Origin: an uncultured bacterium | GTDB taxonomy: Bacteria; Auribacterota; JACPWU01 | Direction: 5' to 3' | DNA: 32,000 nt | NCBI GenBank assembly: GCA_964640155.1 | Contig: CAZXEQ010000005.1 | Coordinates: 154,353 to 186,352, forward strand | Shown here: positions 1 through 21,297 of the stretch, one piece after another | How positions within the stretch are numbered: position 1 is the stretch's first letter | Layout: the number at the start of each line of letters is the position of its first letter | Translations under genes and position numbers: made by a program | The notes under the pieces: generated by a model | The model's input: only the letters and a program-made list of their open reading frames with translations | The model's database searches: none | What the model was told of the DNA's origin: nothing

Positions 1-1828
1 GTTTTACTTCTTCCATTGCTTCATGAATCAATAAAGAGAGCAAAAATTCTACCCTGTCATGAAAAAGATTTTCCCCTATAGCTTCGTTATAATCATGAAT
101 CGTTTCGTAATCCTCTTGATTCACAATAATATGTAAAATACCGTTCTCAACATAGCGTCTGGCTTGAACATCCTTCACATCCTTCGAACGATAAAATTTT
201 ATTCTTCCTTCAGCCAAAGCTCTTTGAATACGCTTAAGGGCTTCTTCATATTTTGAATGTTGAGACAGACCAGGTGGGGTTCGATCACGAGACAATTGAT
301 CCAATTCTTTTCGCTTTAAAATTTCTTCTATTGCTGCCTGTATTTCCGTCTCTTTCTCTATCGGTTCTGCTTGAGATAAATCAATTTCATCAGATACAGT
401 ACAATGTCCTTCTACAGGAGAACCCACATATTTTGCTGCTCCTGAAATTGATCGTTCCGATTCTTTTGCTCGTGCGACCAACGAATCAGATGTTCTTTGA
501 ATCGCAGAAATACTGCGAGAGGGATCTTGCATATTAGAGATAAGAAGTTCTTTATATTGTTCCACCCAATAATCATTAAATCCTGCTTTTCTTAATCTTT
601 CTAAAATCCTACTTAAGAGTTGATTTCTCTGATTATAATCTCCCATTCTCTTCAATACTTCATCCAAAACTTCATGCCTTTCTTCCTCTGAGTTAAAACT
701 TAAATAAGGGTAAACTAGTTTGAAATATTCTTTAATTTCATCTACATCTCCTCCATCAAACACTGCTAACTCTTTTAGCGCTTTTTCAAATCTATCCTCC
801 TTAGTTTCGATCTTTGAAAGATCTATCAAACTAACTCTTCCAGAACCATCCACATGAAATAAAAGATGTTTCGGTTTAACATCTATAAGGCTTGTCATCA
901 ACATGAGCATTGCTAATTCTATTTTTTGTTCTCTCGTCATCATTTCACATGGATTACTGCTTGTTTCAGATTCCTGATATTCTGTAACCATATAAACTTC
1001 AGGTACTATCCCCCACCAAAGATCTCTCATTTGATATGTGACAGCAGGGGGAGATTGAATAACCGAAAGACCTAATTTCTCCATTACAATTCTGACGAAA
1101 ATTTCATTATAAAGAGCGTCGAACCCCTTCTCCATTCCGGAAAGAAAGCCTGTATCAGAATCTCGCTTCACAACATACTTCTTCCCATTAATTTCAACAA
1201 CTCTCGCATCCCCAACGGTTCCTCCTAGTCGTTCACCATTTAAAGTATGAGGGAACACCCCGTCAAAAAGCACTCTCACTTGATCCTCATTTAAAATGGC
1301 ATTGTGGAGCTTTGACACTACAACTTCTTTAGTTTTAGCAAAATAATCTCTAACCATTTGAGTTAATACAGAGTCTTTGCCAAAAGCTTTTTCCATCGAG
1401 GTTATCCAAAGTTGAACTTGAGCAGGATTTGAGCCATCTGCTTCTGGAAAATTAATAAAAAGAGATAACAACCGAAAGAGAGCATTTTGCTCTCTTTCAT
1501 CGAGCTCTGACCAAATCTTCGAAAGCCAAGATTCAAAAATATCTCGCGGAGATAGTCCTTTCCTAAGACCCTCTCTAAACTCACGAATCATGATATCTTC
1601 AAGAACAGAACGCTTATCTGCTGCAATATCTGACCATCTGTCTCCTGTGACAAGAGGAGTCTGTAAGGTTTCTTTAGATACTTGCGGATCAAATATTATC
1701 TGATCAATTGAAGAGTCTGCAAAAGCGTTTTTGAGGTCAATTCCCGAAAAGTCGAAAAAGAAGGTTAAAGAAAGACATATGGACAATGCCTTCGTCATAA
1801 AAGGTTTTAAACTATATTGAAATAACAT
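1..1828 (-). CDS. Exported hypothetical protein, 3' end cut by the window edge (at least 609 aa). It has a signal-like N-terminus, a 99-aa module paralogous to the giant ORF, and a protein-kinase-like core.
   Basis: Absent from the ORF track because no stop codon lies in the window. My manual minus-strand translation from ATG 1828 stays open for 609 codons down to nt 2. It starts MLFQYSLKPFMTKALSICLSLTFFFDFSGIDLKNAFADSS. A purine-rich GGAAGAAGG tract lies just upstream of the ATG, and the gene has its own promoter. Confidence 0.75.
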   Translation of the reverse strand, partial: MLFQYSLKPFMTKALSICLSLTFFFDFSGIDLKNAFADSSIDQIIFDPQVSKETLQTPLVTGDRWSDIAADKRSVLEDIMIREFREGLRKGLSPRDIFESWLSKIWSELDEREQNALFRLLSLFINFPEADGSNPAQVQLWITSMEKAFGKDSVLTQMVRDYFAKTKEVVVSKLHNAILNEDQVRVLFDGVFPHTLNGERLGGTVGDARVVEINGKKYVVKRDSDTGFLSGMEKGFDALYNEIFVRIVMEKLGLSVIQSPPAVTYQMRDLWWGIVPEVYMVTEYQESETSSNPCEMMTREQKIELAMLMLMTSLIDVKPKHLLFHVDGSGRVSLIDLSKIETKEDRFEKALKELAVFDGGDVDEIKEYFKLVYPYLSFNSEEERHEVLDEVLKRMGDYNQRNQLLSRILERLRKAGFNDYWVEQYKELLISNMQDPSRSISAIQRTSDSLVARAKESERSISGAAKYVGSPVEGHCTVSDEIDLSQAEPIEKETEIQAAIEEILKRKELDQLSRDRTPPGLSQHSKYEEALKRIQRALAEGRIKFYRSKDVKDVQARRYVENGILHIIVNQEDYETIHDYNEAIGENLFHDRVEFLLSLLIHEAMEEVK

Positions 1829-1867
1829 CCCCATTACCTTCTTCCTAAGTCCGCTTACAGCGTATAT

Positions 1868-1896
1868 ATTATACCACTTTTATCATCACTTTTCAA
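1868..1896 (-). promoter_or_regulatory. sigma-70-type promoter for the 1..1828 gene
   Basis: The minus strand reads TTGAAA, a 17-nt spacer ending in TGg (extended -10), then TATAAT. The -10 element is about 40 nt upstream of ATG 1828. Confidence 0.5.
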
Positions 1897-1978: not shown

Positions 1979-4900
1979 TTAAGCTGCAACCTCAATTTCA
2001 GCCGGAGATCTTAAAACATGAGGAACACTTCGTGGCAACCCTGAAACTGCCTTTAAAACAGATTTTTTTAGAGAAATAGCGGTATCCGAAAGAGGTTGAT
2101 ACGCTTCCAACGCACGATCAAGCGCTTCTACAGAAGCTTGTGCAGAATCTAATTTTGACTTCAAAATCTCTGCTAATTGATGTGTTAACTCTTTTAAGAA
2201 TTGATCCCTTACTGATCCATCTAATATTGCATCTGCCCGTCTGGCACCTTCGGCTATCGCTCCTGCAAAATCGAAAGAATTACTAGCTTGTCGATAAGAA
2301 GCTAAAAAAGTTCTTATTTCTCCTTTTAGGACTTCTAAAGAATTCATCGTACTGAGAGGCGTCGCTTCGGTCCCTTTTTCCTCTTTCAACTCAATCTGAT
2401 TCAATTCAAGTTCTACACTCTGTCCACTTTCATCTTTTAACCAATGGATTTGAAGTGTCCCCTTCTCTTCATCGTAACTTAACAACTCTGGGAATGTATT
2501 CGATAACTCATTGAGATCTCTTAAGTAATATTCATAATCTCCTTCCGTTAAGTCTATTCTCCTTTGCCCTCTTAACACTCTCTCATGCAGTTCTTCTAAC
2601 AAATGATAATCCTCTTCACCCATCGCCTTCTCTTTACTTCGATCCTTCATTATTAAATATTCTTCTATTTTCTTAATTTTCTCTGCATCCAATGTCAGTT
2701 TTGTTCCTTGCCCTATTTCTCTTTCAAGGCTCTTGTTTTTCTTTTGTATGGCTTCTCTTAAGGTGTAGTAACCTTGTACTACTTGCTCTGTCCAAAATCT
2801 ATCAAAGGCCTCCAACCCTTCTGCCTCTAGTTTTTCTTTGAACAGTATGGCAAAAGAGCGATCCTGTTCTGTATGTTTTGCATTTCTTAATGTCTTCATA
2901 TCTCCAACTAAGATGAGTCGATCTGAAGCTCGACTCAATGCTACATTCAGCCGATTGATATTGGCGACAAAGCCTACTTTGCTTGGATCTGGGTTACTTC
3001 TTACAAAGCTATAGATGACTACTGCATTTTCTCTTCCCTGATAACTATCTACAGTCCCTATCTGGCTTTCTACGATAGCTTGTGCCTCATCTTTCTTCAT
3101 CTTTCTTTCTCTTATTAGATAGTCTCTTATCTTTTCTCTGATTAACTCTACCTGCGATTGATACGCTGATAATATACTTATCTGTTCTGATCTATACCCA
3201 GATGCCAATGCCCTTTTGTATTCTTCTAAGCATTTGTTTGCTTCTTCTGTGTTTTGATAGCTTGTACCCCTAGCTTCTTCATTGCCTGAAGCTTTTTTCA
3301 TAGGGACATCAACTCTTCTTACTGTGTCTTCTTCCATCATTCGCCATGTCTTAGGAACCATCATTTTGTTATAAATGAGTCGGCCTATCATGACGGATAT
3401 CACAGGATGGCTTCTATAGTTACGAGCTAAAAATGTTTGGGCTTGTCCTTTGTTCCATCTTCTTGCCATTCCACTTTCTTGGATCATTGCCCGATAGATG
3501 TCTGTTTGACCTTTCATCGCAGCTTCATCTATAAATGGCTCTAATTGTAAATGGTCTCCTGCTAAGATGATCTTTTCTTTTGCTTTTGCTCCTGCCAATA
3601 CCGTATCTATCTCATTGACGGTTCCTGCTTCATCTATAATGACAACATCATATTCTTGATCTGCCGTCTCCGGCACTCGATACATGGAGTCTGTTGTGAC
3701 TCCAACCACATATCCCTTTCCATTTGTTTTCCTTTTCTTAAACTCTTTCATTCCTTCCCCGTTATAGCCATCCTCCCTTGCTTGATTCCACACTTGATAT
3801 TTTCTTAGAGACTCTATAACTCGATCATCTCCTCTTCCTTCTTCTCCTCGACTATACGCTCTTAAAATAGGAACTTTATTTCGATCCAGTCGCTCTAATA
3901 CATTGTCTACGGCCAGATTTGTCCGACTGACCACCAATACTCTCTTGCCTTGCTTCACCAGCTGCTGTGCTATTTCTACCACTGTTGCGGTCTTCCCACT
4001 TCCTGCTCCTCCTTGTATCAACGCTACTTTTGTCCTAGGATGTAAGGCCATCCTTACAGCATTGGATTGGAATGGATCTTGAGCTACTCTTTCATCTTGG
4101 ATCTGAATCTTACTTTTCTCTTCGCTGATTTCTTCTTTATTGATTGTCTCTGGTTTTTCAAGCCCTAAAAGTTCTCTCGTTGCTCGACTTAAACCATTTC
4201 TTACTTGAGCTTTTCCTCCGATTGCTCTGAGCCTCTCTATTTGTATAGCTCTTAAGGCAACATTATTGCCTAGCTCTTTTTCTTTGCCTTCAACCATCTC
4301 TTTTAATTCTCCCAAAACGTTTTTCAGCTCCTTACTCTGAGAGCTATGTCCTACCTCTCCGGGTAGTTTTAATGATGTTACTTTGGCTTCTCTGTTATAT
4401 TCTTCATCTAAGATGCTTATTTCTGGTAATGCAATTCCAAATCGCCGGGCTGCTTCTAGAAGCGATTCATTGGGCTCTTTTCCATTGAGCAATGCCCAGC
4501 TGTCATTCGTTAGTCCTCTCCTTACTCTATCCTCTAACGCTTGCTCTACCAGACCGGGACTGGAATACCCTTGCGCTTTCATCACCCGCAACATCCAATG
4601 TCCATGTATAGGTGATTTAATCAGTCGACTTAATCGCGTGATCATTCTACCTTCAACTTCTCTTTGCGTCTCATAAATCCATTCTTCTAATGTTTCATCA
4701 TAAAATCGTCTCACTTTTACTTTGCCAGGTTTTCCAATTCCTGTGGAAAGTATAGCTTTCTTGTGCTTTCCATCATCAGTCCAAGAAAAATGGACTCTAC
4801 CACCGCTATACACTTCTGTTTTCCATTCCAAAGGTTCAAACCCATCCTTATTTTGGACATCTTGAGCCTTAAGCTGTTGAATAACTTTTTCTTTATTGCG

Positions 4901-7900
4901 ATCAAATATTTCAAGCTTCCAGAAATTTTTGCCCTCTTCCTTAACCAATCTAGATTGTTTTACAATTTCTTTTTGATTTTCTCCCTTCCCTTCTACTCGA
5001 CGCGTCTCATATACCCACTCTTTCAGATCTTCATCATAAAATCGGCTCGCCTGAACTCTTCCCTTTTTCATAGTGCCCGTAGCAAGACGAGCTCTCTTTT
5101 TCTGTCCATTGTCTATCAAAGAAAAATTAATTTGTCCGTAATTGTCTGATTCTGTTTCCCACTGCAGGGGCTCAAACTTATCCTTATTTTGGGCATCTTG
5201 GGCCTTAAGATGTTGAATAACTTTTTCTTTATTGCGATCAAACATTTCAAGCTTCCAGAAATTTTTGCCCTCTTCCTTAACCAATCTAGATTGCTTTACA
5301 ATTTCTTTTTGATTTTCTCCCTTCCCTTCTACTCGACGCGTCTCATATACCCACTCTTTCAGATCTTCATCATAAAAACGCCTCACTTTCACTTGTCCTT
5401 TTTTATTAACTCCTGTGGAAAGACGAACTTTTTCTATGTGTGCATTGTCCCTCCAAAAAAAGCCAACTAATCCAGCACTATCTGTATCTACAGTCCACTC
5501 CATAACCTCAAACGCATCCTTATTCTTGGCATCTTGGGCCTTAAGTTGTTGAATAACCTTCTCTTTATATCTATCAAATATTTCAAACTTCCAGAAATTT
5601 TTACCCTCTTCCTTAACCAGTCGTGATTGTCTAATTATCTCTTGCTTATTTTCCCCTTTCCCCTCTACACGCTGAGTCTCATACACCCATTCTTTAAGAT
5701 CTCTATCATAAAAACGCCTTACTTGAACTTGGCCTTTTTTCCCAGTCCCTGTAGAAAGATAGACCTCGTTTCTCTGTTCATTATCGGTCCAAAAAAAACC
5801 AACTAATCCAGCACTATTTGTCTCTACAGTCCACTCTAAGGGTTCAAATGTATCTTCATTTTGAGCATCTTGGGTCTTAAGCTGTTGAATAACCTTTTCT
5901 CTATAACGATCAAAGACTTCGAATTGCCAATAACCTTGGCCTTCTTCCTTAACCAGTCGTGATTGTCTAACGATCTCTTCTTGTTTTTCTCCATCTCCTT
6001 CTACACGTCGCGTCTCATAAATCCATTCTTTGAGCTCTTCATCATAAAATCGTCTTACTTGTACTCGGCCTTCTTTAGCAATGCCTGTGGAAAGATTCAC
6101 TGTCTTTTGCTGTTCCTTATCCGTCCAAGTAAAACTGATTAATCCTTTACTATCCGTATCTACAGTCAACTCTAGAGACTTAAATACATCCTTATTCCGA
6201 GCATCTTGAGTTTTAAGTTGCTGAATAATTTTCTCTTTATTGCGATCAAACCTTTCAAAATGCCAGTGATTTTGACCTTCTTCCTTAACCAGTCGTGATT
6301 GTCTAACGATCTCTTCTGCTTTTCCTTCTACACGTCGAGTCTCATAAATCCATTCTTTGAGCTCTTCATCATAAAATCGTCTCACCTGAGCTCTGCCGGT
6401 TTTAGCAATCCCCGTAGAAAGAATAACTGTCTTTTTCTGTTTATTGTCCGTCAAAAAAAATTTGACTTGACCATAAGCACTTGTATCTGTGATCCATTCA
6501 ATGGGCTCAAATGCAGTAGGTGACTGATCATCCAATTGTCGAAGTTGGCGCAAAACATCTACTCTTGCTTCTTTAGCTTCTAGCTTGCGATATTGCACTT
6601 CTTTCATCAAAGCTCCAGGTTTTATAACTCCATACAGATCAAATAAAAATGGATTTAATTGTTTTATTTCTCTCTGTAATATTCTCGCATCTTCTTCTGC
6701 AAGCTCTTTTTCTAATATCTCTTCATCAGGTTGCTCTCCAATTGGTGATTTCTTCAAAAATTCATGTACGGTTTCATGAGACATTCCAGTTAAAAACGAT
6801 GCTCTACGATGGGTTTTATCTTTGATATTCAAAAAGGCAAGGATATTGATGTAGTATTGGCCATCTGTTTTATGATTACCAAAAAGGGTTCGGTATTCTT
6901 TTTGGGTTCGATCCGATCCAAAATGAAGGGTAAATGGCCCAGCTGTTAATTCTATTCCCTGTAATCTATGTCGACTTCGAATAATTTTCCCCAATTCTGC
7001 ATAAAACTCATCACGACTCATGTCTGTTCCCACACCCATGGCCTTTTCCAAGCGTTTTAATTCTGGACTTTCATCAAATTTAATATCTCCATTCGTTACA
7101 GTAAACGTGACGTTTTTCCCATCCAATGCCTGATACGTTTCTGCATCTTCTGCCTCCGTTGGAGCAGCAAGGCCTTCGTTAACTTCAGCACTAAAATGGG
7201 CAATCTTTATCGTTTTATTTTCTTCGTATGTTCCCTTTCGCATATCATTCTTAAATTGTAAATATCCCCATAGGGTTAATCTACGTTCTTTCCAAATCTT
7301 ATTTCTATTATCTAATTGCTCCAAATGCTGTTTATATCTGGGCGTCTTTATATCATCCCTAGTTGCAAGTAATCGAGATAATTGACGATCTTGAGCTTCT
7401 TTTGTTAACTGGACAATTAATTCTTCATTAGCCTCACCTTGTTTATATTCTCTCTTCACCCCTTCAAAAAAATCACGATCCAAATATCCATGCAAAGCTT
7501 GAAAATAGTAATTTGTCTCTACTTTTCTCAACTCTTCTATAGAGGCTTGAATAGATGTTATAATATTTTCTAATTCTGATTCATCAGCCCTTCCCTTTAC
7601 AACTTGATTTAATAACTCAAAAAGTTTTTCTTCTTCTTTGCGTTCGATCTCTTGTCTCCTCTGAATATCAGCAAGAAGTCCCAAAACGCTTCTTTCTTCT
7701 AAAAGATAAATTTGCTTACGGGTATATTGGGGAATTGCATTTTCATAACTAAACGCTACAGAAACCCCTCGATCAACTTTTTTGTCGTTTCTTCCTTCAT
7801 AATTCATTAATACATAATCAACTTCATGTAATGCTTTATTTCCGATTGCTACTACCTCTTCATCGCCTTTCGTTGCCGCCGCTTCTCCACCTTTTCTTCC

Positions 7901-10900
7901 ATAGTGACATAAGGCCGTCGTTACAGCATGCGTTACATATTTGGCTTCTTGACTATCTACTTCTAAAGAGCCACGATAAATCGTCGTTACCAGTTGAATC
8001 GTAGTAATAATGAAACCTTTATCATCTACTCGATATCCTATTTCTTCCATTAAAGCTAGAACTTCGATTTTGTAACTTTCATCTACTTTTAAATCTTTCA
8101 ATAAATCGCTAAAAGCGTATCTCCCTTCATTTTCCTTAAGTCTAAGTTTTGACCGCAGGGAAATCATTCCAGGCAATAAATAAGGATTTGTAGTTTGATC
8201 AGCTAATTCTTGAATTAAATCGCTGCTATATGAAACAATAGCGTTCGCATGATTCAAAAGCAAAGCCCTGACACGATCTTTAAGTGAGTATGCATCACTT
8301 ACTTCTTCTTCCTTAAGATAAGCGATTCTGAGATGTAAAAACGGATTTTGGGAAACACTAGTCCATGTCTTATCCTGAATGCCTTCTACACGCGCAAAAT
8401 CTTGATATCCAAAACTGTCACTCATCACAAGCAGGCCTATATCCACGAGATTCTCCTGGGAGATACTTTGAATTTCTTTCTCATTTTCCAGTCTAATAAT
8501 ATCGCCTAAAAGCAAAGCTTCTAAACCCTGATAAACCAATGGAGCATCCTTGCCCTTTAAATCAAAGCGGTTCATCACTCGGCTTAAAATCTGTATATCT
8601 TCTTCTTTCTGGAGTACCCCTTTAGAAAATAATACCGCAAAAAACTGAGGCCCCCATAGAGAACCTAGCCATTCCTGATCAATCACGTCTTTCAATAACT
8701 CTCTCATCTTAGGAATATTCTCCGCTGTCAATGCTCCTTGAGTCACCAAGCGGTTTATAACGCGATAACGATTCATCGTTTTTCTGCTTACAGGTTTTGA
8801 CAATCCTTGAAACCAATTTCGAGAATTTTCTAAATTCTCTTCGGTCTTTGCACCGCTTTCAAGAAGAGAAGAAAATGCATCTAGAGCCAAAGGACCGCTA
8901 ATCCATGGTTCACGACTAATGACTTCAACAACATGCAAAAACCAATCTTTGTTGCCGGGGTTTATATCTTCTGGAAGGCTGCCCAAAACCTCAAAACGCT
9001 TATCTTTAAATGAGTCATGATTGGCATCAATCTGGTCTATCACTTCTACAATAAGATCAAGATTTAATGTTCTAGAGTATAAAACCTGCGCTACGATGCC
9101 TCTTGCGACCAATAGACTAAAAACACGTTTGGTTTTCCAATTATTTGTCCAGCTTCTGTCCGCTATTTTTTCTAAAGTTTCCAATAAAGAATTCTGCATT
9201 TGTTCAGGATAGCTATCAAAGGTAACAGATATAAACTGCAACATTTCAATAACAGCACTTGAAGATGCCGGCCTCAGTTGAGCAATCCTATCCATCCAAT
9301 TTAAAAACTCTGCAAGGTTTTTTTCTGTTATTACACCCGATTTCACCAAACCGATAAAAACTTCTTTTCCCCTAGGAATTCTTAACCACTTATCGTTTTT
9401 AAAGGTTTCCAAAAAATCACTGATGGTTTGAACAATATCTTTTAATTTTTCATCTTCTGCAGCAGCACTTTCTAAATCACGAATAAGCGCTCTTGTTAAA
9501 TCAGACATAACAACTAGAGGGACAACTACTGAAGCAAGCTCATCTTTTTTCTGCCCCTCTAAACTTTCAAAATATTCTCTTACAATCTGAGTTAAAACAG
9601 AATCTTCTCCAAAAGCCTTGTTCATCATGTCTAACCAAATTTTAGCTTGTGTTGGATTTGAAGCATTCGCTTCAGGGAAATTCACAAATTGTGACAACAA
9701 AGTTCGCAAAGATGTATGTTCTTGTTCATCTAAACCATCCCAAATCCTAGAAAGCCAACCTTCAAATATTTGGCGCGGGGATCGGCCTTGTGCTAAACCT
9801 TCCCGTAAATCATCTGCCATCATATTCTCAAGAACAGGTCGTTTTGGCTCTCCAATTTGAGCCCAAATATTTCCTGTAGGAGCAGGATTTTGAAGCATTT
9901 TCTGAATTTCACTTGAGCTATGCCCCACTAAACGTTTTTCAGAAAATTCTACATTTTCTAAATCATAGGCCTCGTCCATCATGATTCTTTCATATAAATC
10001 AGAAGAAATATCTCCATTCACTTGAGGGGTCCATGTGGTATACGAAATCCCCTTTGCCTCTAAAAGCTTTTGAATTCCTTCGGTGTGAAAGCCACCGGTG
10101 ATTAAAATGATTGTACGCTGTGCAGCTTTGTTCATATTTTTTAAAGCATTCTCCAAAAGAATTTGGTCTCGTTTTTGAGCTAATTCATAAAAATGTTGGG
10201 CTTCTTGAATGAGTAAATCCCAATCTTTAGAGAAAGAAGGAGATTTTAGAGAAGTAAGCATGAAACCTAACTGTCGAAACAATTCTTGAGGAGATTTTTC
10301 AACTGTTTCTACAAGTTCTTTTCTTGAAAGTTCTAAATTGATCCATTTCTGCAATAAATGCCATTGTTCATTTATTTTTACAATATTTTCTACCTTTTCT
10401 TGATCCGCTTGTTTCTTGATTTGTTCATCTATCAATTGCGATAAATTTAAATGTGCTTTATCAAAATCAATTTTCCCCTGCTGCTGAAGAAAATCAATCC
10501 AAATTTCCAGTGTGGGGTATTGTCGCTTAAAAGAGTTTTTACTGATCTTTTCTTCAAAAATATTTTTCAAGAAAGAAAAGTGTTTTACAGTGGATAATTT
10601 GCCTAAACGATATTCCAAGCTACTTCTTACAACATTTTGAAGTTCTTCTCTAGAGAGTCTGTTCTGAAAGGATTGCAACAACTCATTATATTCTTTTTGT
10701 ACCTTTGCAGAATCAATCTCTTTTTGCAAAGTATTTAACTGCCATAACTCATTTGTTTTTAATAATTTATCTAAATCCGCTTTTTCGAGCAAAGCAATGA
10801 TCTTTTCCAAAGAAAATTTATTGCTGCTCATTCCTTTTTGAGCTTGATCTAAAAGCAGTAACTTTTTTGAATATGATTTCTTTTTAATACTTTCTAACCA

Positions 10901-11473
10901 CTGATTGAAATTTTCTATTTCGTCTTTAAGCTTTTGATAAAGCAACCGTGTTTGTCTGAAGGCCTTAAAATTTTCAAGATAAATTTCAGAATTTTCTACA
11001 CCCATCAAATCAATTTTGCTTTCAGGGCCTTCTGAAATCACTGCAAATTCTGCACCTGTTAAATACCCTTCATTCAAAAATTTCTTAGCTACATTTTTGC
11101 GAATATTCGAATCTGGAAAAGATTGATAGAGAAGTGTTCTTAGGGGCCCTTCAGCACCTTCTACAAAAACCTGATCAATTCCTTTTTGATTCAAAGCTAA
11201 AATACTTTGAGCAATTTTTTCTTGAGCCTCAGGCTGGCAATGTAAATCTCGTATTAGAAAAATATTATTCTTCGAATTACTTTGATAGTTTTTGCCTTGT
11301 ATCATTCCAGGCAATGAAAGATCTTTAAAAGAGATTGGTAAAGAGGCAGAAAAAGAAGGACTGGCTTCTAATGTAGAAACTACTCCGACATTTAAAATAA
11401 GATTAAAAACGAGAAATGGAACAAGAACCATTTTCAACCATCGATAGCTTTGTGAGGGACACAAAAATGACAT
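1979..11473 (-). CDS. Giant multidomain protein, 3164 aa. Contains a signal/anchor, TraB/Tiki-like halves, an HExxH region, two repeat arrays and an SF1 helicase.
   Basis: An uninterrupted 9.5-kb frame in an AT-rich genome, with an ATG start. The helicase motifs are unambiguous, and the internal repeats are in frame. All overlapping plus-strand ORFs are short shadow ORFs. Confidence 0.9.
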   Translation of the reverse strand: MSFLCPSQSYRWLKMVLVPFLVFNLILNVGVVSTLEASPSFSASLPISFKDLSLPGMIQGKNYQSNSKNNIFLIRDLHCQPEAQEKIAQSILALNQKGIDQVFVEGAEGPLRTLLYQSFPDSNIRKNVAKKFLNEGYLTGAEFAVISEGPESKIDLMGVENSEIYLENFKAFRQTRLLYQKLKDEIENFNQWLESIKKKSYSKKLLLLDQAQKGMSSNKFSLEKIIALLEKADLDKLLKTNELWQLNTLQKEIDSAKVQKEYNELLQSFQNRLSREELQNVVRSSLEYRLGKLSTVKHFSFLKNIFEEKISKNSFKRQYPTLEIWIDFLQQQGKIDFDKAHLNLSQLIDEQIKKQADQEKVENIVKINEQWHLLQKWINLELSRKELVETVEKSPQELFRQLGFMLTSLKSPSFSKDWDLLIQEAQHFYELAQKRDQILLENALKNMNKAAQRTIILITGGFHTEGIQKLLEAKGISYTTWTPQVNGDISSDLYERIMMDEAYDLENVEFSEKRLVGHSSSEIQKMLQNPAPTGNIWAQIGEPKRPVLENMMADDLREGLAQGRSPRQIFEGWLSRIWDGLDEQEHTSLRTLLSQFVNFPEANASNPTQAKIWLDMMNKAFGEDSVLTQIVREYFESLEGQKKDELASVVVPLVVMSDLTRALIRDLESAAAEDEKLKDIVQTISDFLETFKNDKWLRIPRGKEVFIGLVKSGVITEKNLAEFLNWMDRIAQLRPASSSAVIEMLQFISVTFDSYPEQMQNSLLETLEKIADRSWTNNWKTKRVFSLLVARGIVAQVLYSRTLNLDLIVEVIDQIDANHDSFKDKRFEVLGSLPEDINPGNKDWFLHVVEVISREPWISGPLALDAFSSLLESGAKTEENLENSRNWFQGLSKPVSRKTMNRYRVINRLVTQGALTAENIPKMRELLKDVIDQEWLGSLWGPQFFAVLFSKGVLQKEEDIQILSRVMNRFDLKGKDAPLVYQGLEALLLGDIIRLENEKEIQSISQENLVDIGLLVMSDSFGYQDFARVEGIQDKTWTSVSQNPFLHLRIAYLKEEEVSDAYSLKDRVRALLLNHANAIVSYSSDLIQELADQTTNPYLLPGMISLRSKLRLKENEGRYAFSDLLKDLKVDESYKIEVLALMEEIGYRVDDKGFIITTIQLVTTIYRGSLEVDSQEAKYVTHAVTTALCHYGRKGGEAAATKGDEEVVAIGNKALHEVDYVLMNYEGRNDKKVDRGVSVAFSYENAIPQYTRKQIYLLEERSVLGLLADIQRRQEIERKEEEKLFELLNQVVKGRADESELENIITSIQASIEELRKVETNYYFQALHGYLDRDFFEGVKREYKQGEANEELIVQLTKEAQDRQLSRLLATRDDIKTPRYKQHLEQLDNRNKIWKERRLTLWGYLQFKNDMRKGTYEENKTIKIAHFSAEVNEGLAAPTEAEDAETYQALDGKNVTFTVTNGDIKFDESPELKRLEKAMGVGTDMSRDEFYAELGKIIRSRHRLQGIELTAGPFTLHFGSDRTQKEYRTLFGNHKTDGQYYINILAFLNIKDKTHRRASFLTGMSHETVHEFLKKSPIGEQPDEEILEKELAEEDARILQREIKQLNPFLFDLYGVIKPGALMKEVQYRKLEAKEARVDVLRQLRQLDDQSPTAFEPIEWITDTSAYGQVKFFLTDNKQKKTVILSTGIAKTGRAQVRRFYDEELKEWIYETRRVEGKAEEIVRQSRLVKEEGQNHWHFERFDRNKEKIIQQLKTQDARNKDVFKSLELTVDTDSKGLISFTWTDKEQQKTVNLSTGIAKEGRVQVRRFYDEELKEWIYETRRVEGDGEKQEEIVRQSRLVKEEGQGYWQFEVFDRYREKVIQQLKTQDAQNEDTFEPLEWTVETNSAGLVGFFWTDNEQRNEVYLSTGTGKKGQVQVRRFYDRDLKEWVYETQRVEGKGENKQEIIRQSRLVKEEGKNFWKFEIFDRYKEKVIQQLKAQDAKNKDAFEVMEWTVDTDSAGLVGFFWRDNAHIEKVRLSTGVNKKGQVKVRRFYDEDLKEWVYETRRVEGKGENQKEIVKQSRLVKEEGKNFWKLEMFDRNKEKVIQHLKAQDAQNKDKFEPLQWETESDNYGQINFSLIDNGQKKRARLATGTMKKGRVQASRFYDEDLKEWVYETRRVEGKGENQKEIVKQSRLVKEEGKNFWKLEIFDRNKEKVIQQLKAQDVQNKDGFEPLEWKTEVYSGGRVHFSWTDDGKHKKAILSTGIGKPGKVKVRRFYDETLEEWIYETQREVEGRMITRLSRLIKSPIHGHWMLRVMKAQGYSSPGLVEQALEDRVRRGLTNDSWALLNGKEPNESLLEAARRFGIALPEISILDEEYNREAKVTSLKLPGEVGHSSQSKELKNVLGELKEMVEGKEKELGNNVALRAIQIERLRAIGGKAQVRNGLSRATRELLGLEKPETINKEEISEEKSKIQIQDERVAQDPFQSNAVRMALHPRTKVALIQGGAGSGKTATVVEIAQQLVKQGKRVLVVSRTNLAVDNVLERLDRNKVPILRAYSRGEEGRGDDRVIESLRKYQVWNQAREDGYNGEGMKEFKKRKTNGKGYVVGVTTDSMYRVPETADQEYDVVIIDEAGTVNEIDTVLAGAKAKEKIILAGDHLQLEPFIDEAAMKGQTDIYRAMIQESGMARRWNKGQAQTFLARNYRSHPVISVMIGRLIYNKMMVPKTWRMMEEDTVRRVDVPMKKASGNEEARGTSYQNTEEANKCLEEYKRALASGYRSEQISILSAYQSQVELIREKIRDYLIRERKMKKDEAQAIVESQIGTVDSYQGRENAVVIYSFVRSNPDPSKVGFVANINRLNVALSRASDRLILVGDMKTLRNAKHTEQDRSFAILFKEKLEAEGLEAFDRFWTEQVVQGYYTLREAIQKKNKSLEREIGQGTKLTLDAEKIKKIEEYLIMKDRSKEKAMGEEDYHLLEELHERVLRGQRRIDLTEGDYEYYLRDLNELSNTFPELLSYDEEKGTLQIHWLKDESGQSVELELNQIELKEEKGTEATPLSTMNSLEVLKGEIRTFLASYRQASNSFDFAGAIAEGARRADAILDGSVRDQFLKELTHQLAEILKSKLDSAQASVEALDRALEAYQPLSDTAISLKKSVLKAVSGLPRSVPHVLRSPAEIEVAA
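2894..4066 (-). other. Upf1/DNA2-like superfamily-1 helicase module of the giant ORF (aa ~2470-2860)
   Basis: Ordered motif set:
- Walker A GGAGSGKT (nt 3989-4012, checked against the DNA)
- motif Ia SRTNLAVDNVLERL
- motif II VIIDEAG
- motif III ILAGDHLQLEP
- motif IV NYRSHPVI
- motif V TVDSYQGRE
- motif VI RLNVALSRA
This matches the AAA_11/AAA_12-type Upf1/Sen1/DNA2 pattern. Confidence 0.85.
4574..6511 (-). repeat. In-frame tandem coding repeat: five full units of ~112 aa (336 nt) plus one degenerate unit (aa 1655 to ~2300 of the giant ORF)
   Basis: Unit starts (FEPxEW-like) fall at aa 1655, 1764, 1876, 1988, 2100 and 2212, giving periods of 109 then 112 x4. The consensus core is LSTGxxKxGxVxVRRFYDExLKEWxYETRRVEGxGExxxEIVxQSRLVKEEGxNxWxFExFDRxKEKVIQQLKxQDAxNKD. 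Confidence 0.9.
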
Positions 11474-11539: not shown

Positions 11540-11568
11540 AATATAGCATTTTTATGAAGAGTTTTCAA
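11540..11568 (-). promoter_or_regulatory. Candidate sigma-70-type promoter for the giant ORF
   Basis: The minus strand reads TTGAAA, a 17-nt spacer ending in TGc, then TATATT. This is the same architecture as the 1868-1896 promoter. It lies about 65 nt upstream of ATG 11473. Confidence 0.4.
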
Positions 11569-15637: not shown

Positions 15638-15749
15638 AGGCTGTCTAGATTCTAGTTTTTCAATGTTTAATCGAAAAGGTAGAAAATTTTAACTTAAAAA
15701 ACCAAAGAGTTCCATAGAATTGCCCGTCTATCCTAAAAATAAACCCCTA

Positions 15750-15780
15750 TAAAAAAAGAGGACCCTCTACGGGTCCTCTT
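15750..15780 (-). terminator. Intrinsic terminator after glnK
   Basis: The minus strand reads AAGAGGACCC, loop gtaga, GGGTCCTCTT, then TTTTTTA, about 30 nt after the P-II stop codon. Confidence 0.7.
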
Positions 15781-15808
15781 TTCTTGAAACACGATAAAAA
15801 AGGAAGAA

Positions 15809-16162
<354 letters not shown>

Positions 16163-16168
16163 TTAGCT

Positions 16169-17623
16169 TTATTCCAATGTTGCGTAACCAACTTCACCAT
16201 GTTCTGCCAAATCTAATCCCTGACGTTCAACATCAGGAGTAGGTCGCAACCCAATGGTCAACTTCACCACATAAGCAATGACAGTTGTTCCCACAATAGC
16301 CAAAACAATGGTTAACCCCATTGCTTTTAATTGTTCAATCCAAAGAGTCTTGCCTAGAAAATCTTTGAGATTCACAAGAAGGTTAGGATTAGAAGTTCCA
16401 TTTGCAAAGACGCCAGTCAAAAATGCACCCAGCGTTCCACCTATGGCATGAACACCAAACGTATCCAAAGCATCATCATATCCCAACCAATGCTTCAGTT
16501 TGTAACATGCAAAGAAAGGAATTAAACCTGCAAGAACACCAATGATCATGGCCGAAGAGGCATTGATAAAACCGCAAGCCGGTGTAACCACAACCAATCC
16601 AGCGACAGCTCCAGAGCAAAATCCCAACACACTGGGTTTACCCTTTAGAATATATTCTGCAAGAGCCCAAGAGAAAGAAGCGACTGCGGCTGCAAGCGTG
16701 GTTGTCATAAAAGCATTGGCAGCAACGCCATCAGCTGCTACTGCACTTCCCGCATTGAAACCATACCAACCCACCCAAAGCATTCCCGTTCCAACCATAC
16801 AAAGAACCATGCTATGAGGAGCCATATTCTCTTTACCAAAACCCAAACGTTTACCTAAAATCATACATAAAACCAAAGCAGACCATCCTGAAGACATGTG
16901 AACCACAGTACCACCAGCAAAATCAATGGCTTTAACTTTTGCCGCAGCATTCCACACACCGTTCATCAGGCCATCAATACCCCAGACCATATGAGCCAAT
17001 GGGAAATAAATAACAAACATCCACAAAGCCATGAACACCATTAAAGCACTAAATTTCATACGTTCTGCAATCGCACCGATGATTAATGCGGGTGTAATAA
17101 TGGCAAACATCATTTGATACATCGAAAACACATTTTGAGAAACCCAATAGGAATAATTGGTATTGGGGGCAGAATCCACTCCCTTTAAAAAGGCAAAACT
17201 TAGATCTCCCAAAATGGGGCCTCCTGTTGAGAATACAAAACTATATCCAACAGCCCACCAAAGAATGGTGACTAAACCTGCCAAGCCCAAACATTGAGCT
17301 AAAACTGACAAAATGTTTTTTGCTCGAACCAAACCTCCGTAAAAAAGTGCTAACCCCGGCAAGGTCATGAAAAGAACCAAGAGAGCTGAAGTCATCATCC
17401 AGCCATTATGTCCAGGACCTGCTACGGCAATTTTAGAAGAAACTTGAGCATCTACTGCATCCGAACCTCTTGCCGTATTATTAACATATGCTTCAATATC
17501 TGCCACCCGTTGTTCCAAGGATGGTTCCTCTTTATCTGCAAAAGCTAAAGAGGAAACTTTTAACAAGCTTACCCCCAATATTAAAAACATCATTAATTTT
17601 AGAAAAACTGACTTCTTGCCCAT
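16169..17623 (-). CDS. amtB: Ammonium transporter (Amt family) with signal peptide
   Basis: Multi-pass membrane protein with typical Amt blocks (AIDFAGGTVVHMSSG, WFGFNAGS-like WYGFNAGSA, GVHAIGG). I place the start at ATG 17623 (MGKKSVF) because AAGGAGG lies 7 nt upstream. The track start at 17689 has no ribosome-binding site. Confidence 0.85.
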   Translation of the reverse strand: MGKKSVFLKLMMFLILGVSLLKVSSLAFADKEEPSLEQRVADIEAYVNNTARGSDAVDAQVSSKIAVAGPGHNGWMMTSALLVLFMTLPGLALFYGGLVRAKNILSVLAQCLGLAGLVTILWWAVGYSFVFSTGGPILGDLSFAFLKGVDSAPNTNYSYWVSQNVFSMYQMMFAIITPALIIGAIAERMKFSALMVFMALWMFVIYFPLAHMVWGIDGLMNGVWNAAAKVKAIDFAGGTVVHMSSGWSALVLCMILGKRLGFGKENMAPHSMVLCMVGTGMLWVGWYGFNAGSAVAADGVAANAFMTTTLAAAVASFSWALAEYILKGKPSVLGFCSGAVAGLVVVTPACGFINASSAMIIGVLAGLIPFFACYKLKHWLGYDDALDTFGVHAIGGTLGAFLTGVFANGTSNPNLLVNLKDFLGKTLWIEQLKAMGLTIVLAIVGTTVIAYVVKLTIGLRPTPDVERQGLDLAEHGEVGYATLE

Positions 17624-17677
17624 TTTTACTCCTCCTTGGTGATTTTTAAACGTTAGAAAAATAGATATGATGGATAA

Positions 17678-17693
17678 AGCAAATACCATGCCA
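17678..17693 (-). promoter_or_regulatory. sigma-54 (-24/-12) promoter of amtB-glnK
   Basis: The minus strand reads TGGCATggtatTTGCT, against the consensus TGGCAC-N5-TTGCW. It lies about 55 nt upstream of ATG 17623. Confidence 0.6.
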
Positions 17694-17950
17694 ATGGTTC
17701 AAACAAAGAATATTGTCTTTAAATGATGCGCGTGAAATGAGCTTGGGAATGAGAAAGGTTGAGGATTCTTTTTAGTTTTTTTATTTTCAAATTTTTTTAG
17801 AACATCCTGGCGAGATTTCAACCACGTGATTAAAAAAGATCACCTACTAAAAACGATCGCATTCTTTTCCAATTAAAGAATAAAGATAGTCTGTATAAAA
17901 TCAGGATAAATAATAGTAGAAAAAAATAAAGTAATACTGAGGTATTAGTT

Positions 17951-19657
17951 TTAGGATGCATTCTTAATGGGCAATTCAATCGCAAAAGTACTTCCTTTTC
18001 CTACTTCGCTCTGAACATAAATCCCACCCGAATGAGCTTCAACAATTCTTTGAACAATCGCAAGACCTAAACCCGTGCCTCCCTTTTTAGAAGTAAAAAA
18101 GGGCTGGAATAACCGCTCTAAATGTTCTTCTGGAATACCGACTCCTGTATCTTGAAATTGAATATAGATTTTATCAAGGCTTCTTTTTAAAGAAAGAGTT
18201 AAGGTTCCACCCTGAGGCATGGCTTGAATCGCATTAAGCATAACATTAAGAAAAACTTGGGACATTTGCCCTTTATCTAAAAAAAGAGGCGGTACTTGCT
18301 TATCATAATCTGTTTTCAACTGTACTTTTTGCTGGGCAAGTCTAAACCGCATAAATGAAACAATTTCTTCCAAGCAGTCTTTAACGTCAGTCAAAGCCAA
18401 TGACATTTCACCCGGTCGTCCCATGGAAAGGACTTGATTAATAATTCTTTCCATTTGTCGAATTTTTTCCCCCATCATCTCTGCATCTTTTTCTAGAAAA
18501 ATAGCTTCTCCTTTTTGAGCTTTTGTTTGCAGAGACTGCATCAACATCTTAATCACCGTCAAAGGATTACGTATCTCATGAGCAATTTCAGCTGCAACTT
18601 CTCCTAAAACAGCTAGGCGCTCTTGCTGACGCAAATACTCTTCAGCCCCAATCATGCGTGAATATAGTTTTGAATTTTCAATGGCTACAGCAGCAAGAAT
18701 GGCCAAAGCAGAAAGAACATCCACTTCTTCTTGAGCAAAGTGGCGGGGCAAAATGCTGTAAACATTTAAAAGGCCTATACACTTCTCTTGAAAAATCATG
18801 GGGACAGAAAGCAAAGAACAAAGCCCTTCTTCTTGAGCAATTTCAGGATAGCGATACAACTCACTTTTTTTCACATCCAATACCTGAAGAGGTTGTCTCT
18901 TCAACACCACTTGTCCTAACAAACTCTGTTTAATCGTTAAATTAGGTTTGCGCGAATATTTTTCAGAAGCACCATAAAAACTGCGCAGAATCAGCTCCTT
19001 TCCCGTTTCATCTAAAAGCATGAGCGAGCATAATTTTGTTTCAGTTAGTTTTGTCGCCTCTTCTGTAACTTTTGCAAGAATCTGTTCCAAATCCAAATTG
19101 GAAATAATGGTCTGTCCAATTTTAAAAAGAGAGGCCAACTTTCTGGCCTCACGTTTTGACTCCGCATAAAGTCTTGCATTATGAATAATCTGAGCTGAAT
19201 GCGCCGCCAAACTTGCCAATAATTTTTGATCGGATGAAGTAAATGCATGGAGTCTGGTGCTATCTACATTGATCACACCGATGACCTTGCCTTTGATAAT
19301 TAAAGGGACTGCTAATTCTGAACGAATATTTTTACTCACCTGTACATATTTAGGTTCTTTCAAAACATTGGGAATTAAAAGAGATTTTCCCGTCTTCGCC
19401 ACCCACCCCGTAATTCCCTCTCCTACCTTTAAACCAAGGGAACGAATCTTTTTTTCACTGATATTTTGTGCTACTTCAACTTTTAAGAGATGAGTTTTAG
19501 GCTCAATGAGTAAAATCGACCCCCCCGTTGCCTTCATCATAATGACAGCTTCTCTGAGCAAGAATTTCAAAATTTTGCGTGGTTCCTGAGTGGAAGCCAT
19601 CACATGACTGATATTATAAAGAAGCTTAATTTTTTTGAGTTCGGTGTTTAGTTTCAA
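17951..19657 (-). CDS. Soluble GAF-GAF sensor histidine kinase
   Basis: Two GAF-like regions, the HisKA H-box EIAHEIRNPL, and HATPase N/G boxes (NVMLNAIQAM, DTGVGIP, GGTGLGLAI). No transmembrane segment. The track start is TTG and is uncertain. Confidence 0.8.
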   Translation of the reverse strand: MKLNTELKKIKLLYNISHVMASTQEPRKILKFLLREAVIMMKATGGSILLIEPKTHLLKVEVAQNISEKKIRSLGLKVGEGITGWVAKTGKSLLIPNVLKEPKYVQVSKNIRSELAVPLIIKGKVIGVINVDSTRLHAFTSSDQKLLASLAAHSAQIIHNARLYAESKREARKLASLFKIGQTIISNLDLEQILAKVTEEATKLTETKLCSLMLLDETGKELILRSFYGASEKYSRKPNLTIKQSLLGQVVLKRQPLQVLDVKKSELYRYPEIAQEEGLCSLLSVPMIFQEKCIGLLNVYSILPRHFAQEEVDVLSALAILAAVAIENSKLYSRMIGAEEYLRQQERLAVLGEVAAEIAHEIRNPLTVIKMLMQSLQTKAQKGEAIFLEKDAEMMGEKIRQMERIINQVLSMGRPGEMSLALTDVKDCLEEIVSFMRFRLAQQKVQLKTDYDKQVPPLFLDKGQMSQVFLNVMLNAIQAMPQGGTLTLSLKRSLDKIYIQFQDTGVGIPEEHLERLFQPFFTSKKGGTGLGLAIVQRIVEAHSGGIYVQSEVGKGSTFAIELPIKNAS

Positions 19658-19735
19658 GTTCTCAAGCCTCGCATCTCAAGTTTTAAACTGAATGCTCTTA
19701 CACACAACGCATTCCCGTATAACGATCGACGAATC

Positions 19736-20242
19736 TTAATGCAAATAGGTTTTTCTTCGAAACACATCTGTTTTAAGAGAGCCTACTCGATCTAAAAATA
19801 ACATCCCATTCAAATGATCTATTTCATGTTGAAGAACAATGGCTTCAAAGCCCTCTGCTTGAATTTGTATAGATTGACCTTGTGCATTCAAACCCTCTAC
19901 AACAACCTTATGAAAACGCGTCACATTACCCGTATAGTCCGAAACACTTAAACAGCCTTCTCTACTCATTAAAATTTCTTGAGTTTCAATCAATCGAGGA
20001 TTCATCAGCACAATAAGACCATGATTGGGAACCACTTTACGATATCGGCGAACATCAACCACTAAAAGTTGAATCAAAAGTCCCACCTGACAAGCTGCCA
20101 ACCCCACACACCCTGGGAAACTTTCCATAGTCTCAATCAAATTATTAATAGAAGCAGAAACTGTGCCATCTATCTTATCTACTGGCAAAGATTTCTTTTT
20201 TAATCTTGGATCTGGGAAATGAACAATCGGAAGAATCGCCAT
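19736..20242 (-). CDS. def: Peptide deformylase
   Basis: The three PDF motifs are present: GLAACQVG, EGCLS and QHEIDHLNG. Confidence 0.9.
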   Translation of the reverse strand: MAILPIVHFPDPRLKKKSLPVDKIDGTVSASINNLIETMESFPGCVGLAACQVGLLIQLLVVDVRRYRKVVPNHGLIVLMNPRLIETQEILMSREGCLSVSDYTGNVTRFHKVVVEGLNAQGQSIQIQAEGFEAIVLQHEIDHLNGMLFLDRVGSLKTDVFRRKTYLH

Positions 20243-20244
20243 AT

Positions 20245-20790
20245 TTATAGTGTGGAAGTTTCTATTGGATGCATTGTAATCGTTACAGAAAGCTTACGCC
20301 CCAAATCTTCCAAATCTCTTTGAAGACTTGAAAGATCTATTCCTGAAGGAGGTTCTACCTCTAACATCATCATGTAAAGAGAGGATTTACTTTCTACAAC
20401 CCTTCGTGTATTTACATCCGTAATATTTACTTTTTTCTTGGATAAAAGCTCTGCCACCTGGTAAACAATTCCCGGTTGATCAACACCATAGACACTGATC
20501 ATTTGTGGGCAAACTGCTTCTTTTTTCTTCTGACTTTCTTCAGAAGTTAATTTTCTTAAAAAAACGGACAAATGCAAAGATTCTCTTACAGAATTAAATC
20601 TTTGATCCAATACTTCCAGCGTCAGATTTTCTGGAAGAGAAGCAATTAAAATCATGGCGAATTCTCTTTCCAAAATCGTCATGCTAGAATCTTCTAAATT
20701 GCAACCTGTCTCATAAAGAACTTTTGTTACTCCAGCCACAATACCGGGACAATCTTGACCTAATGCAGTAATGACTATTTTTGATTTCAT
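20245..20790 (-). CDS. Tandem ACT-domain protein (GcvR-like)
   Basis: Two ACT-like halves (ITALGQDCPGIVAGVT and SVYGVDQPGIVYQVA). An AAGGAG ribosome-binding site precedes the ATG. The stop lies 2 nt before the def start. Confidence 0.65.
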   Translation of the reverse strand: MKSKIVITALGQDCPGIVAGVTKVLYETGCNLEDSSMTILEREFAMILIASLPENLTLEVLDQRFNSVRESLHLSVFLRKLTSEESQKKKEAVCPQMISVYGVDQPGIVYQVAELLSKKKVNITDVNTRRVVESKSSLYMMMLEVEPPSGIDLSSLQRDLEDLGRKLSVTITMHPIETSTL

Positions 20791-20951
20791 GATATTCTCC
20801 TTCGTTCCACGTCATGCGGAGCGTGTTGTGCGTCATGCGAAAAGACAAGAACGCTAAAAACGCATCTCTCATAACGCACAACGGTTTTTAAAGTATACAA
20901 AAAGCAAGCCCTTTTTAGTAGAATTTCAAAAAATGAAAGAAACGGGAGAAA

Positions 20952-21290
20952 ATGATGAATGAATTCACAAAGAAAAAATGTCGACCTTGCGAAGGAGGTA
21001 TTCCTCCTCTTTCTCAAGAAGAAATTCAAAAGAGTCTTTTTCAATTAAAAGGTTGGGAATTATCAAGTGACACAAAAACCATTATTAAAAATCTTAAACT
21101 CAAAGATTTTAAATCTGCTCTTAAATTAGTGAACGAGATTGGTGTAATAGCAGAATCTGAAGGGCATCATCCTAATCTATATATCCACAGATACAAATTG
21201 CTTCGCATCGAGTTAAACACCCACGCCATCGATGGACTTTCTGAGAATGATTTCATCTTAGCCGCAAAGATCGATGAGTTAATCGGCTAA
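20952..21290 (+). CDS. phhB: Pterin-4a-carbinolamine dehydratase
   Basis: The EGHHPN core motif, and a length of about 110 aa. The second ATG (20955) has better spacing to the GGGAG tract. Confidence 0.8.
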   Translation: MMNEFTKKKCRPCEGGIPPLSQEEIQKSLFQLKGWELSSDTKTIIKNLKLKDFKSALKLVNEIGVIAESEGHHPNLYIHRYKLLRIELNTHAIDGLSENDFILAAKIDELIG

Positions 21291-21297
21291 GCAGCTT

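Follow-up and report, generated by a model that had tools for sequence, protein, structure and literature searches.

Giant proteins that unite several enzymes in a single polypeptide chain are known from the Omnitrophota and related phyla of the Planctomycetes-Verrucomicrobia-Chlamydiae (PVC) group (West-Roberts et al., 2023, bioRxiv 10.1101/2023.11.21.568195; 10.64898/2026.06.07.730766) and have also been described in Auribacterota (PMC12057145). The N-terminal regions of these proteins were reported to ‘generally lack identifiable domains’ (bioRxiv 10.1101/2023.11.21.568195; 10.64898/2026.06.07.730766; PMC12057145), and the occurrence of cytoplasm-type enzymes in exported giants constitutes a paradox that was also raised in the Omnitrophota preprint (10.64898/2026.06.07.730766). 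Here, we have analysed a pair of genes of this kind in 32,000 nucleotides of DNA from an uncultured bacterium of the Auribacterota (lineage JACPWU01; NCBI GenBank assembly GCA_964640155.1, contig CAZXEQ010000005.1, positions 154,353 to 186,352 of the forward strand), a stretch to which we refer as the window. The two encoded proteins, a giant of 3,164 residues (P0001, window 1979..11473 (-)) and its downstream neighbour (P0002), whose gene enters the window with ~610 codons of its 5' part (1..1834 (-)) and continues past the left edge, share a small module, which in P0001 follows a conserved N-terminal domain (the head). This module is best described as a previously undescribed orphan domain in a small family of mosaic giants, and as such is new within the known giant-protein phenomenon of PVC-group candidate phyla. 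As explanation of its role we favour, with a probability of roughly 0.5, a non-catalytic neck of exported mosaic giants that was kept as a handle for docking or assembly.

In common with the Omnitrophota-type giants, which combine methyltransferases, kinases or phosphatases, sugar-metabolism enzymes and helicases, the window proteins carry a putative N-terminal signal peptide or transmembrane segment, form mosaics of unrelated enzymes with internal tandem repeats and originate from the same group of uncultured phyla. They are much smaller, with a length of ~3 thousand residues compared to more than 10 to 100 thousand, and the SecA-DEAD, C39 and dockerin domains were not found in Pfam scans of the window giants. 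The papers on the Omnitrophota giants contain no description of the head, the module or tandem paralogues with common scaffold segments. A conceptual likeness extends to the multifunctional-autoprocessing repeats-in-toxin (MARTX) proteins and polymorphic toxins, where conserved scaffold or trafficking regions are joined to swappable enzymatic cargo, a resemblance that is not accompanied by a match. As in these toxins, N-proximal and C-terminal segments of the window giants are conserved and the enzyme domains between them differ. In contrast to MARTX proteins, they are devoid of RTX repeats, a cysteine-protease domain, Rhs/YD repeats and adjacent genes for type I (T1SS) or type VI (T6SS) secretion systems or immunity proteins, as judged from Pfam scans and the neighbouring genes. 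They also contain a Sec-type N-terminus instead of a C-terminal T1SS signal, and their cargo shows housekeeping-type folds such as phosphoglycerate kinase (PGK), GlpX-type fructose bisphosphatase (FBPase) and histidine phosphatase instead of recognised toxins. Finally, the docking domains of polyketide synthases and nonribosomal peptide synthetases are small helical units that join giant proteins from adjacent genes, which is the type of function proposed for the neck. The relation is one of analogy, since docking domains are terminal and complementary, whereas the necks of the presumed partners are homologous and, with one exception among seven proteins, lie inside the chain, and there is no match in sequence or fold.

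The similarity of the two module copies had been noticed in a sequence-only reading, which counted 58 identities in a gapless alignment of 99 residues. This count is exact, and both quoted peptides match the translations of window 9569-9865 (-), equivalent to P0001 residues 537-635, and 1340-1636 (-). BLASTP extends the alignment upstream by 13 residues, which contribute five of 63 identities, thereby defining a first copy at P0001 residues 524-635 (9569..9904 (-)), where a conserved ML(Q/S)xP lead-in precedes a bundle of five predicted helices, and a second copy at P0002 residues 42-153 (1340..1675 (-)), located directly behind the signal-peptide-like N-terminus. Over this length, 63 of 112 positions are identical and 82 of 112 positive with no gaps, at a significance (E 3e-38) that substantiates the earlier hand alignment. 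Against full-length P0002, the module matches with 56% identity (E 5e-36), and an exhaustive HMMER search places the second copy at residues 42-158 of the 2,843-residue protein. In the entire window, two copies were detected by tblastn in six frames. The E-value, the absence of gaps and this low copy number exclude chance or low-complexity similarity. The DNA sequences of the two copies are 67% identical, with an identity of 50% at third codon positions, and the non-synonymous (dN) and synonymous (dS) divergence determined by the Nei-Gojobori method for the two window copies amount to 0.34 and 1.33, corresponding to a dN/dS of ~0.26. All three segments that are shared by the two proteins are near synonymous saturation. 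A recent repeat, gene conversion or an assembly artefact is excluded by the third-position identity and a dS of 0.8-2.0, and the weak third-position identity in conjunction with the high dS therefore identifies the module as the product of an old duplication under purifying selection acting on the protein.

The downstream gene had been taken for that of a smaller exported protein. Instead, it encodes another giant that is cut by the window edge, with a full length of 2,843 residues on the Logan contig L001, an independent contig that overlaps the window and encodes P0002, whose sequence was returned by the exhaustive protein search, or 2,855 residues in the NCBI model P0016, which starts at 1834, the other candidate starts being 1828 and 1798. 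A comparison of P0001 and P0002 over their full length reveals three collinear common segments. The module, as first of these segments, shows the highest identity (56%, compared to 40-48% in the other two). The second (P0001 residues 1423-1630, window 6584..7207 (-); P0002 residues 1607-1836) contains an HExxH motif and is 40% identical (E 3e-42), and the third, located near the C-terminus (P0001 residues 3049-3119, 2117..2329 (-); P0002 residues 2725-2792), is 48% identical (E 3e-11). Outside these segments there is no alignable similarity. The three collinear segments therefore identify the window genes as old tandem paralogues with a common scaffold and different enzyme cargo.

We have searched for further copies of the module on several levels. 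In an exhaustive HMMER search with a profile of the two copies against 1.84 billion representative proteins, convincing matches were confined to P0001, P0002 and a third protein, P0003 (E 3e-10). The candidates P0004-P0009 were discarded as internally repetitive proteins with summed weak matches. No further copies were found in two word-indexed searches, two metagenome scans and a first genome scan. A later genome scan with the block of head and module as query identified five more giants, three in Candidatus Theseobacter exili (L003, L004 and L006) and two in one metagenome-assembled genome (MAG) of a Candidatus Auribacterota (L005 and L010), and additionally three giants from Omnitrophota or uncultured organisms (L007-L009). 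P0003 turned out to be the rear part of a P0001 homologue on contig L002, from a MAG labelled ‘Chlamydiota bacterium’ by NCBI, whose frame aligns to P0001 residues 8-635 with 36% identity (E 2e-98) in a similarity that ends exactly with the module. In L002, one in-frame TAG (2315-2317) is located in an insertion of ~25 codons (2230-2330) with short direct repeats (ccgcattccgcattccgaattccg; SPITDN-stop-SPIT) and divides the gene into a head open reading frame (ORF) of 512 residues and the 853-residue P0003. This stop codon may stem from the assembly, mark the decay of the gene to a pseudogene or reflect a genuine division into two genes.

In total, we have identified seven module copies (P0001, P0002 and L002-L006), one per protein, all of which belong to giant ORFs in PVC-group MAGs of the Auribacterota type, whose GC content of ~38% equals that of the window. 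A hidden Markov model (HMM) of the module, applied with jackhmmer and hmmsearch, recovers six members with E-values of 1e-36 to 1e-55, and L004, which was outside the model, with 2e-10. The family is marked by an HMM match of ~110-140 residues, the ML(S/Q)xP lead-in, an invariant tryptophan and an (A/L/V)FG(E/K)xS … (Y/F)(F/C) end. In six of the seven copies (P0001 and L002-L006), the module directly follows the head, and P0002 is the only member without a head. In L002-L006, the conservation runs uninterrupted from the head into the module, with 30-38% identity (E 1e-81 to 1e-101), and apart from P0002, the module resides within the first ~25% of every member. The contig of L010 ends before the module position, and all six head-bearing giants of the Auribacterota type with sequence available at this position have kept the module. 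Conversely, L007-L009 do not contain it, nor do six head homologues of ‘Candidatus Omnitrophica’ found in a protein search, hypothetical proteins that are the only named homologues of the head, where the best match to the module HMM has an E-value of 0.15. Module and head are separable, because heads occur without the module, the module of P0002 occurs without a head and the two units are predicted to be joined by a disordered linker.

This separability bears on the view that the module would be a C-terminal subdomain of a head enzyme and that P0002 would hold a fragment of this enzyme. The continuous block in L002-L006 is in line with such a proposal. In opposition, the six full-length Omnitrophica homologues end or diverge before the module, no head sequence is contained in P0002 and the predicted structure, described below, contains a disordered linker between the units, with the module on its own folding confidently. 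A module that forms the tail of the head domain is ruled out by these homologues, the linker and the module-only fold, and the view as a whole is highly improbable.

The predicted structure was obtained with AlphaFold2 (AF2) for P0001 residues 1-640 from nine aligned sequences, with a mean predicted local distance difference test score (pLDDT) of 77.6. In this model, the head, which is also defined by its homologues (residues ~57-500, window 9974..11305 (-)), shows an α/β core with a large helical insert and a pLDDT of mostly 80-92. It is followed by a linker (residues 502-533, 9875..9970 (-)) that is predicted to be disordered (pLDDT < 50) and by the module, which would consist of five helices (residues 544-561, 566-574, 583-597, 607-621 and 626-638, with a pLDDT of 72-90). 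If modelled alone, from an alignment of three sequences, the module displays the same helices with a pLDDT of 81 and a predicted template modelling score (pTM) of 0.72. Based on these models, we regard it as an independently folding five-helix domain of ~110 residues. In all seven copies, including P0002, the helices are preceded by a [K/E]xML[S/Q]xP motif within the otherwise disordered linker. The only residues that are invariant among six aligned members are leucine, tryptophan, phenylalanine and glycine. The module therefore contains no catalytic signature, and in the absence of any invariant polar or catalytic residue we assign it, from its sequence, as non-catalytic.

The module had been described as well conserved and unrecognised, and our library searches agree. 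No match to Pfam or NCBIfam overlaps P0001 residues 524-640 or P0002 residues 42-158, none was found in PADLOC and neither a single sequence nor a six-member profile matched the module in sequences of the PDB. The best profile hit (E 0.09), to the LWY-repeat effector PSR2 of Phytophthora, is not significant and most likely a chance match. With a criterion of E ≤ 0.001 for a structural relative, Foldseek did not reveal a significant match of the module in the PDB (best E 1.1, probability ≤ 0.13) or among the viral models of BFVD (best E 0.81).

For the head, which had been called TraB-like, a distinct N-terminal domain preceding the module was confirmed, but the family label is faint. The Pfam gathering score was not reached by any family member, also not for PF01963 (TraB). 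One of nine members matches PF04187 (Cofac_haem_bdg, of the Tiki superfamily, ChaN) at an E-value of 0.009, below the cut-off, whereas P0001 itself gives no match. The best Foldseek match (probability 0.80, E 0.39, target TM-score 0.30 over 121 columns), to HopBA1 (5t09), is below significance, and a profile search of PDB sequences with the head gave no match. HopBA1 has been described as EreA/ChaN-like. The head has an α/β core and, among its conserved motifs (IRDLHCQ..AQ, VEGAEG and ITGGFHTEGI), the GGFH sequence is reminiscent of the GxxH of the Tiki/TraB/ChaN/EreA-like superfamily, but no curated threshold is reached. The assignment to TraB, Tiki or ChaN is thus a lead and not a finding.

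If the head were a metalloprotease of the Tiki/TraB type, the ML(S/Q)xP motif and the module might constitute the handle at which the head or another protease separates head and body, with P0002 being processed in trans. The conservation of the motif in a disordered linker of all seven members, including the head-less P0002, and the faint signals of the Tiki/ChaN superfamily would be compatible with such a role. The head is, however, at most a putative protease, with no match at Pfam threshold and a Foldseek E-value of 0.39, and Omnitrophota heads occur without linker and module. We thus view a function in processing as quite improbable.

Another conceivable role of the module is that of an element that is read after Sec translocation by a machinery for secretion, outer-membrane anchoring or surface display, similar to the N-terminal modules for retention or targeting in other giant surface proteins. 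Such a role would account for a location as near to the N-terminus as the domain order permits. The earlier assignment of the module to a position right behind a signal peptide in the downstream protein holds, in that an inspection by eye identifies a signal-peptide-like N-terminus (MGMLFQYSLKPFMTKALSICLSLTFFFDFSGIDLKNAFA-DSS, window 1718..1834 (-)), whose hydrophobic region is short and under the threshold for a transmembrane segment in a Kyte-Doolittle scan. In P0001, residues 15-33 (11375..11431 (-)) form a hydrophobic segment with a Kyte-Doolittle mean of 2.24 over 19 residues, predicted by AF2 as part of a helix (7-30), that may serve as signal peptide or as membrane anchor. By eye, all heads and P0002/P0016 follow the Sec pattern, for which we looked for a basic n-region, a hydrophobic core of 7-15 residues and a small-x-small site (AFA-D, IYA-E, AQA-D, VFA-D and others). 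The Sec-type N-termini in all family members, the position of the module directly behind this segment in P0002 and in the first ~25% of the other members, and the strongly hydrophobic cluster that starts ~16 residues past the module in L005 would all fit a role in sorting. Against it speaks that a domain of 450 residues is inserted between N-terminus and module in six of seven proteins, that the module is missing from Omnitrophota giants sharing this head and signal peptide, that no secretion-system genes are conserved beside any locus and that there is no fold likeness to known domains for retention, sorting or secretion signals. We consider this role as improbable.

The sequence-only reading had also raised the possibility that the module is the hallmark of co-located cargo proteins. 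A small family of related proteins is indeed defined by it, but no co-located cargo family emerged, as the five other copies are scattered among unrelated housekeeping genes and have no conserved neighbour. This comparison covers the upstream side of L003, L004, L006 and L010, where the giants run off the contigs downstream, and the neighbours include genes for a capsule glycosyltransferase, an Fe-S protein, a thioredoxin-reductase-like protein, an AI-2E transporter, saccharopine dehydrogenase, MnmA and a NifS-like protein.

In our favoured interpretation, the Sec-exported mosaic giants would consist of a signal peptide, a head of ~450 residues, a disordered linker, the neck and a variable enzyme body. 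In the tandem paralogues, neck, HExxH segment and C-terminal tail would have been preserved through a divergence or exchange of the bodies, and P0002 would have lost its head, which would have brought the neck directly behind the signal peptide. The neck, in turn, would have been kept as a handle for protein-protein docking or assembly at the junction between head and body, binding a partner that is common to the giants. The simplest candidate would be the head, bound in cis in proteins of the P0001 type and in trans in case of P0002, and a paralogous neck or another common extracytoplasmic partner might serve as alternatives. By such binding, the products of the two window genes would become physically linked in an extracytoplasmic location. 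The function in docking or targeting and the joint action of the two genes, as suggested in the sequence-only reading, are thus plausible, and the dN/dS of ~0.26 as well as the conservation of polar and loop residues in the window copies lend them indirect support. The closest module pairs are found within one genome (P0001/P0002 with 56% and L003/L006 with 50% identity, compared to 24-32% in other pairs), in line with partners that have to remain compatible. Whereas the descriptive and evolutionary part of this interpretation is very likely correct, the docking or assembly function of the neck is a tentative proposal and somewhat less likely than not.

Its main competitor is the proposal that the module is a passive relic of duplication, a stable structural spacer without pair-specific binding or targeting, whose conservation reflects the packing of the helical bundle. 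The paralogy proven by the three collinear segments, the core-type character of all invariant residues, the faster divergence of the module compared to the head and the lack of a family or fold match pointing to a specific activity are all expected for a relic. What it explains less well is that the module is the best conserved of the three segments despite saturated synonymous sites, that in the two window copies the conservation is not confined to the helices, with polar positions being 48% and loops 56% identical, the latter equal to helices, and that the module was retained in all six head-bearing giants that reach it and in P0002 after the loss of the head. We thus regard a mere relic as rather unlikely.

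Several observations weigh against a docking neck. Common descent of the tandem paralogues already accounts for the presence of the module in both genes and by itself explains the sharing, and a small, well-packed domain could hold 56% identity through constraints of its fold alone. Between paralogues, the module has diverged more rapidly than the head, with identities of 24-32% compared to 31-45% (the latter between the head of P0001 and those of five other giants), which is not anticipated for the binding to a universal partner. No neighbour, partner or secretion-system gene recurs at the loci, the upstream genes being unrelated and of housekeeping type. The signal peptides were assigned solely from visual inspection and a hydropathy scan, and no more than three sequences went into the model of the isolated module. 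Domains that depend on ATP or S-adenosylmethionine in the bodies, such as the helicase, PGK and methyltransferases, would be awkward in an extracytoplasmic location.

The bodies behind the module show no detectable similarity to each other. At the related loci, each giant ORF is open and runs to the end of the sequence or contig, with lengths from at least 2,067 to at least 4,063 residues, and L009 (846 residues) and L010 (550 residues) are cut by contig ends. In L004 (9932-17083 (+)), PGK (residues 733-950, E 1e-48) is located right behind the module, followed by a GlpX-type FBPase (residues 1238-1395). In L005 (113-6313 (+)), the module is followed by four or five strongly hydrophobic segments (residues 764-854) and, further downstream, by a transglutaminase-like core at residues 1606-1668. 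P0001 contains a weaker hydrophobic stretch (residues 646-664) at a place equivalent to the hydrophobic cluster of L005. No domain could be recognised in the bodies of L003 and L006. Enzyme folds of a central-carbon type (PGK and GlpX in L004, histidine phosphatase in P0002) thus recur in giants that bear signal peptides.

In P0001, the signal or anchor segment, head, linker and module are followed by a helical region, the HExxH segment, six repeats, a superfamily 1 helicase and the C-terminal tail. The HExxH segment is confined to the P0001/P0002 pair among the sequences examined and contains a conserved, zincin-like (M/F)SHE(T/M)VHEFL motif, with HETVH at P0001 residues 1566-1570 (6776-6790 (-)) and its counterpart at P0002 residues 1773-1777. 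No relative of this segment was found in Pfam or the PDB, and two HELxHEAG motifs of P0003 look unrelated to it. The six tandem repeats (residues 1637-2298, 4580-6565 (-)), each with a length of ~112 residues and mutually 45-78% identical, have no family match beyond sub-threshold matches to Pcf11_C. The helicase is of the Upf1/IGHMBP2 type (AAA_11/AAA_12, residues ~2467-2867), and its region (residues ~2438-2878, 2873-4075 (-)) matches models of Mokosh MkoA (E 1e-57 and 3e-47) and the NCBIfam ‘PLuB system helicase-like’ (E 6e-26), in what is probably a generic similarity to Upf1-like helicases. A defence-type helicase inside an exported giant is odd. The body of P0002 comprises a CheR-type methyltransferase region and a histidine phosphatase domain of the phosphoglycerate-mutase superfamily. 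A protein-kinase-like domain suspected by eye behind its module (GxGxxG-like … VVK … DVKPKH … IDL) was not supported by Pfam or by phmmer searches of the PDB.

Both window giants end in two alanines (…EIEVAA at window 1982-1987 and …EVETAA at L001 11630-11635), a feature that is exclusive to them in a set of 117 ORFs with 150 or more residues from the sequences examined. Among the six Omnitrophica head homologues, P0013 and P0014 share this ending (…LESAA and …FLQAA). These termini could act as ssrA-like C-terminal tag for recognition or degradation or as a sorting cue.

Each window giant is preceded by a promoter-like site with a TG extension, TTGAAA-17-TATAAT (11/12) at 1868..1896 (-) for the second giant and TTGAAA-17-TATATT (10/12) at 11540..11568 (-) for P0001, with near-identical cores (ATTTGAAAA … ATAAAA-TG-TATAAT/TATATT). 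No terminator-like site was found between the two genes. Homology of the upstream regions was considered and not adopted, as beyond the promoter cores the regions align poorly, and the comparison is indecisive in AT-rich DNA. The similar cores hint at co-regulation or at a promoter that was duplicated along with the gene. On the 3' side of the second giant, L001 contains a phosphonate-type cluster (15690-21638 (+)) coding for a fusion of phosphoenolpyruvate mutase and nucleotidyltransferase, a split decarboxylase dependent on thiamine pyrophosphate, a class-V aminotransferase and a fusion of NTP-transferase and CDP-alcohol phosphatidyltransferase, which is followed by an LPG-synthase-TM protein. 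This gene content suggests a synthesis of phosphonolipids or phosphonoglycans.

Mosaic giants of the Omnitrophota, Auribacterota and their relatives pose a recognised puzzle, with cytoplasm-type enzymes residing behind export signals. As an orphan domain in a rarely sampled lineage, the module alone is of moderate immediate significance. For one sub-family of these giants, the locus now reveals a definable front end of signal peptide, head, linker motif and neck, which precedes freely varying bodies and of which a tandem paralogue can keep the neck alone. The HMM offers a sequence handle to catalogue the family, and its members provide a small domain capable of folding as well as two natural counterparts, one with and one without a head. 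In a more far-reaching scenario that we consider a long shot, head, linker motif and neck would form the ‘loading dock’ of unrecognised exported carriers of enzyme mosaics, where a Tiki/TraB-like head binds or cleaves the handle of ML(S/Q)xP motif and neck, and P0002 is a client that is tethered or processed in trans by P0001. If true, the two genes would constitute a system that couples different enzyme-laden giants at the cell envelope, perhaps for their delivery to another cell.

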